Below are positions 20,249-21,214 of a stretch of DNA of 32,000 nt, one piece after another; the stretch's first letter is position 1, and each line of letters begins with the position of its first letter. Both the position numbers and the translations under genes were made by a program. The notes under the pieces were generated by a model. That model did no database searches. It was not told the origin of the DNA and worked only from the letters and a program-made list of their open reading frames with translations. Origin of the DNA: Promethearchaeum syntrophicum (GTDB lineage: Archaea; Asgardarchaeota; Lokiarchaeia; Sigyniarchaeales; Promethearchaeaceae); NCBI RefSeq assembly GCF_008000775.2, contig NZ_CP042905.2, positions 1,950,001 to 1,982,000 on the forward strand, in the 5' to 3' direction.

Positions 20249-21214
20249 TTAATACTGTTCTAAGAACTTATAAGCTGCATATCTAAATGCGTCCATTACG
20301 TTACTTCCCGTTCTAGCTGAACATAAAAGATAAGGACAATTTAACTCAGTCGCTTTTTGCTTAATTTCCTCTAAATCAACTTCATGCGTTTCTAAATCCG
20401 TTTTATTCGCTATAAGTATTACTGAAAGCTGTCGATTTATGCTAGTTTCCAGATCTTTTTCCCAACTATCTATTTTTTCAAAAGTTTTTTTTCTGCTAAT
20501 ATCGAAAACTAAGAATGCAAAATTTGCTCCTTGATAAAATCTCTTACGATGTGGAGCCATTTCTTGAGCTTGCCCTCCAATATCCCATAAAGATTCATTT
20601 ACAGTGCATTTTTCATTAATAATTACTTCCTTTCGAGAGATATCTACTCCTATGGTACTAACATAACTTTCAGCAAACTTATCATCTACAAATCTCCGGA
20701 TTAAACTTGTTTTTCCAACTCCCGGAGCTCCCAATACAATTATTTTTACAGAAAATTCTCCTAATGGCAGTTTTCCTTCACGCATTTTTGATAAAATATT
20801 AATAATTGGAGGTATCTCATAATCAATTTCTTCTCCTTCGAGAATTAATTTTATTTTATTAGCCACATGACTACCGAATACTTTAAGTCGATTATCACTA
20901 ATAGATACATCAGCGATAACCGTAAGAATTGCTTTAGGGCCAGCAGTGGCGAACATAAACTTGTTTTCATCAACCAAAGTGATATTTATGAAATTAGAAG
21001 CCGTCCCAAAATCCTTCTTAATTCTACCGATAAAAGAATCGAACACAGCTGTTACAGTCCCAATTTCATCATCCTTATCCATACCTTTAATTTTACTGAA
21101 AATTAAAAGACCATCTTTATCAACTATAGCTGCCGCTTTGATTTCTTCTAAAGAACTCAATAGATTCGAAATTAATTCATTAAACTGATCATTTATACCC
21201 ATTCTTGTTTTCAC
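20249..21214 (-). CDS. Roadblock/LC7 domain fused to a Rab/Ras-like small GTPase
   Basis: N-terminal residues about 5-125 follow the alpha-beta-beta-alpha-beta-beta-beta-alpha Roadblock pattern (EEIKAAAIVDKDGLLIFS...GPKAILTVIADVS). C-terminal GTPase motifs: G1 GAPGVGKT (nt 20731-20708), G2 YVSTIGVD (Rab-like), G3 WDIGGQ, G4 NKTD, G5 CSAR. No C-terminal Cys lipidation motif. The track start is GTG 21214. An alternative ATG lies at 21202. Confidence 0.85.
   Translation of the reverse strand: MKTRMGINDQFNELISNLLSSLEEIKAAAIVDKDGLLIFSKIKGMDKDDEIGTVTAVFDSFIGRIKKDFGTASNFINITLVDENKFMFATAGPKAILTVIADVSISDNRLKVFGSHVANKIKLILEGEEIDYEIPPIINILSKMREGKLPLGEFSVKIIVLGAPGVGKTSLIRRFVDDKFAESYVSTIGVDISRKEVIINEKCTVNESLWDIGGQAQEMAPHRKRFYQGANFAFLVFDISRKKTFEKIDSWEKDLETSINRQLSVILIANKTDLETHEVDLEEIKQKATELNCPYLLCSARTGSNVMDAFRYAAYKFLEQY

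Follow-up and report, generated by a model that had tools for sequence, protein, structure and literature searches.

A Roadblock-first, Rab-like GTPase of Promethearchaeum syntrophicum and its conserved downstream partner gene

The subject of this analysis is a gene of the Asgard archaeon Promethearchaeum syntrophicum MK-D1 that lies within a stretch of 32,000 nucleotides (contig NZ_CP042905.2, positions 1,950,001 to 1,982,000; G+C content about 30%), which is referred to here as the window and from whose first letter all coordinates are counted. The gene encodes a Roadblock-GTPase (RG), one of four such proteins in MK-D1 (PMC10933270), and is followed on the same strand by a gene for a protein that we call the partner. 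In our view RG is a genuine member of an Asgard gene family that probably acts as a dimeric, two-headed GTPase switch, with the downstream protein as its putative dedicated partner. The existence of RG and its domain order are already known; what is new here is the conserved downstream partner gene and a set of motifs that hold across the family. Comparison with its relatives indicates that RG is one genuine gene, ancient and strongly constrained, which is present in at least four Asgard lineages and belongs to a family restricted to Asgard archaea.

The RG gene and its family

The coding sequence (CDS) of RG occupies 20249..21202 on the minus strand (317 residues plus stop), as defined by translation of the open reading frame (ORF), a 100% match at NCBI and alignment of the initiating methionines of homologs. 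An earlier account of the window made from its letters alone, the sequence-only reading, had assigned the gene to 20249-21214. The stop end of that span is correct, but the other end is not. The ORF at 20249..21214 (minus strand, 321 residues) opens with a GTG at 21214, which is in frame upstream of the ATG at 21202 and adds four residues; all aligned homologs begin at the ATG, and the NCBI annotation likewise has 317 residues. The product is 100% identical to the 317-residue 'GTP-binding protein' of P. syntrophicum MK-D1 (WP_147663391.1 / QEE16516.1). Residue numbers given below refer to the 317-residue protein and the positions of Pfam matches to the 321-residue ORF.

All 74 small GTPases of MK-D1, 26 of which are combined with Roadblock or longin domains, have been modelled by Tran, Akil, Senju & Robinson 2024 (Commun Biol 7:273; PMC10933270). 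In Suppl. Fig. 6a of that paper 'WP_147663391.1-RG' is named directly beneath YPT1 and RAB1B, alongside three further RG paralogs, and RG is described as being without the switch II insert found in the GR architecture. WP_147663391.1 has the two features that define the Asgard RG class, a Roadblock domain N-terminal to the GTPase and no GR-type switch II insert. The published RG is the same object with the identical architecture; the downstream partner gene and the family-wide motifs are not mentioned there. Roadblock fusions to Ras-like GTPases in Lokiarchaeum are credited to Klinger et al. 2016 in Box 1 of Dey et al. 2016 (PMC4917890), and according to Liu et al. the domain architectures of Asgard archaea show that Roadblock/longin and GTPase modules have been shuffled extensively. 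The novelty of the fusion that the sequence-only reading had implied does not hold, since the exact accession was already classed as RG in 2024 and Lokiarchaeum fusions had been reported in 2016. Literature searches returned no biochemistry on any Roadblock-first GTPase and no multimer modelling of RG proteins, and in a full-text search neither the locus tags nor the accessions turned up in the main text of any paper.

One genome per species was scanned, which gave 147 RG loci, 80 of them kept; the family alignment was built with tblastn over 86 loci, and residue conservation was counted in the 84 sequences from non-redundant loci. The RG architecture is far beyond chance. The same full-length form is encoded by 147 species-level genomes; query residues of about 1-317 are matched in all of the kept loci. 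A protein search gave more than 120 full-length relatives (305-363 residues, 44-89% identity) from Lokiarchaeia, Thorarchaeota and Hermodarchaeota, and the species-level scan added Hodarchaeota, Harpocratesius and Lokiarchaeum ossiferum to the organisms that carry RG. Several genomes hold two family members, at separate places.

Both domains lie in one uninterrupted alignment at 86 of 86 loci from Loki-, Thor-, Hermod- and Hodarchaeota. The sequence-only reading had named a stop or frameshift at the domain junction of relatives as evidence that would undo the fusion; none occurs at any of these loci, and the fusion stands. The interdomain linker (residues 122-147; 20762..20839, minus strand) was delimited by family conservation and reads E-I-P-x-I-I-x-x-L-S-K-x-R-x-G-K-L-P, with a short helix at 132-138 in the AlphaFold2 (AF2) model. 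Little or no variation is seen at its residues I130, P131, G143 and P146, and G148, with which the GTPase domain begins, is invariant. The Roadblock domain, the linker and the GTPase (G) domain have mean pairwise identities of 0.56, 0.57 and 0.60, respectively; judged by these values, the junction is no loose tether and the linker appears to be as constrained as both domains. A fusion created by assembly or annotation is ruled out by the closed MK-D1 genome (4.32 Mb), by the reading frame that runs through at every locus and by the conserved linker.

The Roadblock domain

The Roadblock/MglB-type domain spans residues 3-121 (20840..21196, minus strand), as delimited by Pfam, by the secondary structure of the AF2 model and by profile matches. 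Pfam Robl_LC7 (PF03259) matches residues 12-101 with 26.9 bits (E 4e-6, model positions 2-91 of 91), the gathering cut-off being 23 bits. The AF2 monomer, computed with 55 homologs in the input, has a mean pLDDT of 86 and a pTM of 0.64. In it the domain is made up of helices 3-17, 43-65 and 103-121 and strands 21-28, 33-38, 72-77, 80-86 and 91-98, which is the full Roadblock/MglB topology (α1, β1-2, α2, β3-5, α3), including a C-terminal helix that LC7-type domains lack. The Thor-RB and MKD1-RB crystal structures have the same topology and are homodimers (PMC10933270). A longin identity is ruled out by the position of a helix at the start and by the α-ββ-α-βββ-α order of the model.

Searched against the Protein Data Bank (PDB), a profile of the N-terminal domain matches 7f8m (E 4e-7), then 3leq (E 5e-4), which is CvnB5 of an actinobacterial conservon and is among the best matches, then 9jue and 7yh1; LAMTOR3 is matched weakly. 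The proposal that the N-terminal 125 or so residues form a Roadblock domain is borne out by the Pfam score above the cut-off and by these matches to solved Roadblock proteins, and modelling of the N-terminus, suggested as a check, gives a Roadblock fold with which the profile matches agree.

To our knowledge, every solved stand-alone Roadblock protein, Asgard examples included, is a dimer, and for this reason the Roadblock domain of RG most likely dimerizes. Residues 41-70, with pLDDT values of 54-66, are the least confidently modelled part of the monomer. The conservation of helix α2 (0.59, as mean pairwise identity) is on par with that of the rest of the domain, and low pLDDT in a conserved helix of this kind has the look of an unsatisfied interface, which may be taken as a modest hint of dimerization.

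The GTPase domain

The Rab-like G domain comprises residues 148-316 (20255..20761, minus strand), as indicated by Pfam Ras, PDB sequence matches and Foldseek, and has a canonical fold in the AF2 model. All of the G1-G5 motifs of Ras superfamily small GTPases are present and conserved, and each of the motifs listed in the sequence-only reading (GAPGVGKT, STIGVD, WDIGGQ, NKTD and SAR) was found in the translation. Conservation in the 84 sequences marks the following elements, all on the minus strand. In G1, the P-loop GAPGVGKTS (residues 158-166; 20705..20731), G158, G163, K164 and S166 are invariant. Switch I contains YVSTIGVD, with T183 at 20654..20656; Y180, T183 and G185 are invariant. G3 is DIGGQ (residues 207-211; 20570..20584) with the catalytic Gln211, and here W206, D207, G210 and Q211 are invariant. 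In G4, NKTD (residues 266-269; 20396..20407), K267 and D269 are invariant and N266 is found in 80 of 84. G5 is SAR (residues 295-297; 20312..20320), in which S295 is invariant and A296 is kept in 82 of 84, most relatives having SAK. This pattern indicates that selection maintains the G domain as a functional nucleotide switch, and the invariance of the motif residues rules out a pseudo-GTPase.

Pfam Ras matches residues 157-315 with 133.7 bits (E 6e-39), and the other Pfam families score lower: Roc 88 bits, Arf 44 bits and Gtr1_RagA 31.4 bits. A Rag-like G domain is ruled out by these scores, and an MglA-like domain by the scores together with the invariant G3 aspartate. The aspartate and the glutamine of G3, invariant in 84 members, also uphold the earlier description of the domain as Rab/Ras-like rather than MglA-like. 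TIGR00231 scores 68.5 bits (cut-off 42.5), and the generic small_GTP model is the sole NCBIfam match. When the whole of RG was searched against the PDB by sequence, the top 60 matches all fell on the G domain and were Rab/Ypt/Sec4 proteins, including the Thorarchaeota Rab 7EZB. Sec4, Rab1 and Rab14 are the best of these sequence matches. With Foldseek, Rab7, Rab2, Rab11, Rab32, Rab1 and Rab8 lead, at target-normalized TM-scores of 0.85-0.94. Sequence and structure taken together, the best matches are all Rabs, Rab6 among them.

In some respects RG departs from the Rab proteins. The five RabF motifs of Pereira-Leal and Seabra read IGVDF, KLQIW, RFRSIT, YYRGA and LVYDIT; RG does not have the full set, with IGVDI, FYQGA and LVFDIS coming close but EMAPHRK at RabF3 and NESLW at RabF2. 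After G3, the family consensus of switch II is M-A-P-Y-R-K-R-F-Y, which in MK-D1 is M-A-P-H-R-K-R-F-Y preceded by E; counted against the Rab1 sequence, this switch II is one residue longer than that of Rab. No prenylatable cysteine is present at the C-terminus of RG, which ends in FLEQY, and a cysteine occurs within the last six residues in only one of the 84 members, in keeping with the lack of a lipidation motif recorded earlier. Family placement rests on hidden Markov model scores and best matches. By its nearest neighbours the G domain is Rab-like, and by its switch II and its C-terminus it is no bona fide Rab.

The position equivalent to Ras Gly12 is Pro160 in MK-D1 and also Pro in the clade around it, and across the family it is Phe or Tyr in 68 of 84 sequences and Pro in ten; the position that follows mostly carries Lys, Gln or Arg. 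As a family pattern the P-loop reads G-D-[F/Y]-[K/Q/R]-V-G-K-T-S, in which residues 159-161 correspond to 20720..20728 on the minus strand. An aromatic residue or a proline at this position is unusual for Rab-like GTPases. Substitutions of Gly12 in Ras are the precedent for a misfit of the arginine finger. By this analogy, an arginine-finger mechanism for a GTPase-activating protein (GAP) is doubtful for RG because of the Pro, Phe or Tyr at this position, and hydrolysis, if it is stimulated, probably uses another mechanism. The sequence-only reading had called the G domain fully competent; this is right as far as the motifs are concerned, but has to be qualified in view of the residue at the Gly12 position.

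The downstream partner gene

The partner gene (19298..20227, minus strand) encodes the hypothetical protein DSAG12_02345 of 309 residues, which was characterized by synteny, AF2 and Foldseek. It begins 21 bp past the RG stop codon. At 66 of the 84 non-redundant RG loci, in Loki, Thor, Hermod and Hod lineages, the next gene downstream of RG in the same orientation is a homolog; at two more a homolog is nearby, and one contig is too short on that side to decide. The remaining 15 loci are without it and fall in two paralog clades, and both kinds of locus coexist in some genomes. The homologs are about 290-316 residues long (for example, in our locus numbering, L004:7121-7990, L006:7123-7992 and L001:7046-7996). 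At the Thor-type loci a 289-residue protein directly downstream of RG is the sole retained neighbour, and it shares 26% identity with the MK-D1 partner (E 1e-23). The pairing of RG with the partner looks selected rather than inherited as synteny, because the flanking genes other than the partner differ among lineages.

Some observations on individual loci may be added. Paralog pairs within genomes include L044/L067 (both on contig JBHLKM010000020.1), L061/L078, L068/L081 and L017/L072. Three of these four pairs have one copy with a downstream partner and the other in the paralog clade that mostly lacks it; the exception is L017/L072, where it is the copy with a partner, L072, that falls in that clade. 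Locus L037 (DATKTW010000123.1, 27.5 kb), which is labelled 'Candidatus Nanopelagicaceae bacterium', carries an RG at 44% identity and a Thor-type partner gene that is 67% identical to the Thor version; most probably the contig belongs to an Asgard archaeon and was mis-binned into a bacterial metagenome-assembled genome (MAG). At two Thor-type loci a putative ORF of 49-50 residues is called just upstream of RG on the opposite strand (L004:5662-5811 and L006:5686-5838).

Scanning of the MK-D1 partner, 26 homologs, the Thor version and ten distant relatives found no Pfam family for the partner core. The partner family is very small: among 1.84 billion proteins it accounts for 62 representative clusters, 12 of them at E <= 1e-30. 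The AF2 model of the partner (pTM 0.85) consists of a β-rich domain and a long C-terminal helix. Foldseek matches it to the N-terminal β-supersandwich of glycoside hydrolase (GH) families GH116, GH149 and GH94 and to galactose mutarotase (E about 5e-7, TM about 0.5), and the fold is accordingly modelled as a β-supersandwich of carbohydrate-binding type, galactose-mutarotase-like. Weak relatives of the core form part of larger proteins that also match Ig-like, subtilase or sorting-domain (PF18962) models, which suggests that these larger proteins are surface or secreted. In the Loki-clade partners an N-terminal CxxC is nearly invariant and a C-terminal W-C fully so.

Other genes of the cluster

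In MK-D1 the partner and RG belong to a same-strand run that comprises genes for a 619-residue protein, a GH2-like protein, RG, the 309-residue partner, a 335-residue protein and a PhoU-domain protein, and this order is also found in L. ossiferum and Harpocratesius. The GH2-like gene (21260..23392, minus strand; 710 residues) has Pfam Glyco_hydro_2_N, Glyco_hydro_2 and Glyco_hydro_2_C matches. It ends 45 bp upstream of the RG ORF, which is 57 bp from the ATG at 21202, and is linked to RG only in Lokiarchaeales. The protein aligns well to β-glucuronidases (reference 6ncy). Both catalytic glutamate sites are replaced in MK-D1, with WSLGSD in place of the acid/base motif WS.GNE and ISKFG in place of the nucleophile motif.TEFG, and the Lokiarchaeales orthologs vary at both positions. 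Judged by these residues, it is probably no active glycosidase, at least in MK-D1.

The 619-residue protein at the head of the cluster (23505..25364, minus strand) has only weak AAA/BrxC-like Pfam matches and keeps this place. It is much more conserved than its neighbours: identity is 91-93% within Promethearchaeum and 66-70% to its counterparts in Harpocratesius, L. ossiferum and the related MAG L011, compared with 58% for RG. At the other end, the gene for the 335-residue protein (18303..19310, minus strand), for which Pfam gave no match, shares 13 bp with the partner gene and is followed by the PhoU-domain gene (17125..18246, minus strand; 373 residues). The order of these two is kept in Lokiarchaeales, with 25-30% and 48-57% identity, respectively, outside the genus Promethearchaeum. 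A gene for a leucine-rich-repeat (LRR) protein of 601 residues (25705..27510, minus strand) lies between the cluster and an HSP20 gene (27825..28526, plus strand). In L. ossiferum and Harpocratesius the HSP20 gene directly adjoins the gene for the protein of 620-630 residues, and the LRR gene of MK-D1 accordingly has the look of an insertion.

Comparison with known systems

RG resembles the Rag/Gtr GTPases (RagA-D, Gtr1/Gtr2) in that a G domain and a Roadblock domain are held in one chain that is not lipidated; in Rag/Gtr the Roadblock domain serves as a platform for dimerization and docking. The two differ in domain order, the Roadblock domain being C-terminal in Rag/Gtr and N-terminal in RG. 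This reversal, the central point of the sequence-only reading, is confirmed by the Pfam positions and the AF2 model, which agree. They differ also in the G domain, where RG has NKxD at G4 and the Pfam Ras model scores 134 bits versus 31 bits for Gtr1_RagA. Rag/Gtr is an obligate heterodimer of two paralogs, and no second RG gene was found beside RG at any locus of the neighbourhood survey.

In MglA/MglB, CvnB/CvnD and MfpD/MfpB, as in RG, a GTPase of the Ras superfamily goes together with a Roadblock domain of the MglB type. However, in MglA/MglB and the actinobacterial conservon pairs the two are separate polypeptides, whereas in RG they are fused. In MglA a threonine (Thr78) replaces the G3 aspartate (PMC3000849). 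MglA also uses an intrinsic switch I arginine, which RG lacks. RG has the canonical DxxGQ and a Rab-like G domain; the arginine is absent from the Roadblock-containing GTPases of MK-D1 in general (Suppl. Fig. 6 legend, PMC10933270). The Thorarchaeota Rab (Thor-Rab; PDB entry 7EZB), an example of the single-domain Rab-like GTPases of Asgard archaea, shares with RG a Rab-like core without a C-terminal prenylation cysteine (E 8e-25, TM 0.87). It differs in having no Roadblock domain, and RG has its own switch II (MAPYRKRFY) and the Pro/Phe/Tyr at the Ras-Gly12 position.

Proposed mechanism and alternatives

In the mechanism that we propose by analogy with these systems, the Roadblock domains would pair two RG chains through helix α2 and the edge strand, and the dimer would be a soluble two-headed GTP/GDP switch that follows the logic of Rag/Gtr with a permuted domain order and a Rab-type head. 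The G-domain head would be held in a set position relative to the Roadblock platform by the linker, which is conserved and rich in proline. The partner may then be a dedicated effector, regulator or input sensor of RG, and localization to a membrane or other target would come from partners and not from a lipid.

Several points weigh against this proposal. Dimerization and the role of the partner are both steps that we infer. The pTM of the monomer model leaves the interdomain geometry uncertain. The bulky residue or proline at the Ras-Gly12 position leaves room for very slow hydrolysis. The partner fold, at a TM of about 0.5, is unlike that of any known GAP, guanine-nucleotide exchange factor (GEF), guanine-nucleotide dissociation inhibitor (GDI) or effector, and the adjacency of the two genes could reflect co-expression without physical interaction.

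The same architecture could also be read as an MglB acting in cis, in which the Roadblock domain folds back, or reaches across the dimer, to the switch regions as a built-in GAP-like or GEF-like regulator and makes RG a self-timing switch. The sequence-only reading had put forward a self-regulating or an obligately dimerising switch, and the first of these ideas corresponds to this alternative. Roadblock dimers act as GAP, and reportedly also as GEF, for MglA (PMC9481161, PMC11016934), the N-terminal domain of RG is MglB-type down to the C-terminal helix of the AF2 model, and a linker with invariant prolines that is as conserved as the domains suggests a fixed geometry and no floppy tether. 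We nevertheless think such a role unlikely: what MglB does is to position the switch I arginine of MglA itself, which the Roadblock-containing GTPases of MK-D1 do not possess (PMC10933270), the G domain of RG is Rab-like and not MglA-like, and the AF2 monomer, with its pTM of 0.64, has no confident intramolecular contact. Alternatively, the Roadblock dimer of RG could dock another small GTPase, as Ragulator and TRAPP/longin assemblies do, and RG would be part of a GTPase cascade, as one of its nodes, rather than an autonomous switch. Dimers of Roadblock or longin domains serve generally as platforms for GTPases, which they bind in a conserved orientation, and MK-D1 encodes 74 small GTPases, 26 of them combined with Roadblock or longin domains (PMC10933270). 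The gene neighbourhood speaks against the idea, which we regard as quite improbable; no second GTPase gene is conserved beside RG, and the supersandwich protein is the sole conserved neighbour.

It might finally be asked whether RG is an artefact, either two genes mis-joined or a pseudo-GTPase that neither binds nor hydrolyses GTP. A mis-join is conceivable in that prokaryotic genes for Roadblock proteins and for GTPases frequently lie side by side, mglB-mglA being an example (PMC4316618), and the Pfam Roadblock score is just above its cut-off (26.9 versus 23 bits). Against this stand the closed genome, the single frame across the junction at all 86 independent loci, the conserved linker and the invariant G-motif residues, and we consider the artefact refuted. 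The reading that we prefer remains that of a genuine gene whose product is probably a dimeric two-headed switch with a putative dedicated partner.

It is also conceivable, although doubtful, that RG and the partner form a dedicated Asgard-specific signalling pair in which a GH-derived module of carbohydrate-binding type senses, regulates or effects the dimeric Rab-like switch, with a catalytically degenerate GH2-like scaffold added in Lokiarchaeales. If this were true, the partner would represent a kind of small-GTPase partner unrelated to the known GAP, GEF, GDI and effector folds, and an Asgard Rab-like switch would be tied to glycan or sugar status and not to membrane traffic.

Significance

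Small GTPases paired with platforms of Roadblock and longin domains hold a central place in the trafficking and nutrient signalling of eukaryotes (Ragulator-Rag, TRAPP and Mon1-Ccz1), and Asgard fusions of such modules bear on what predated eukaryotes. RG offers a clean and conserved example in the one Asgard species that has long been in culture and makes a reasonable target for biochemistry, and its faithful genomic partner gives a concrete entry to working out its function.

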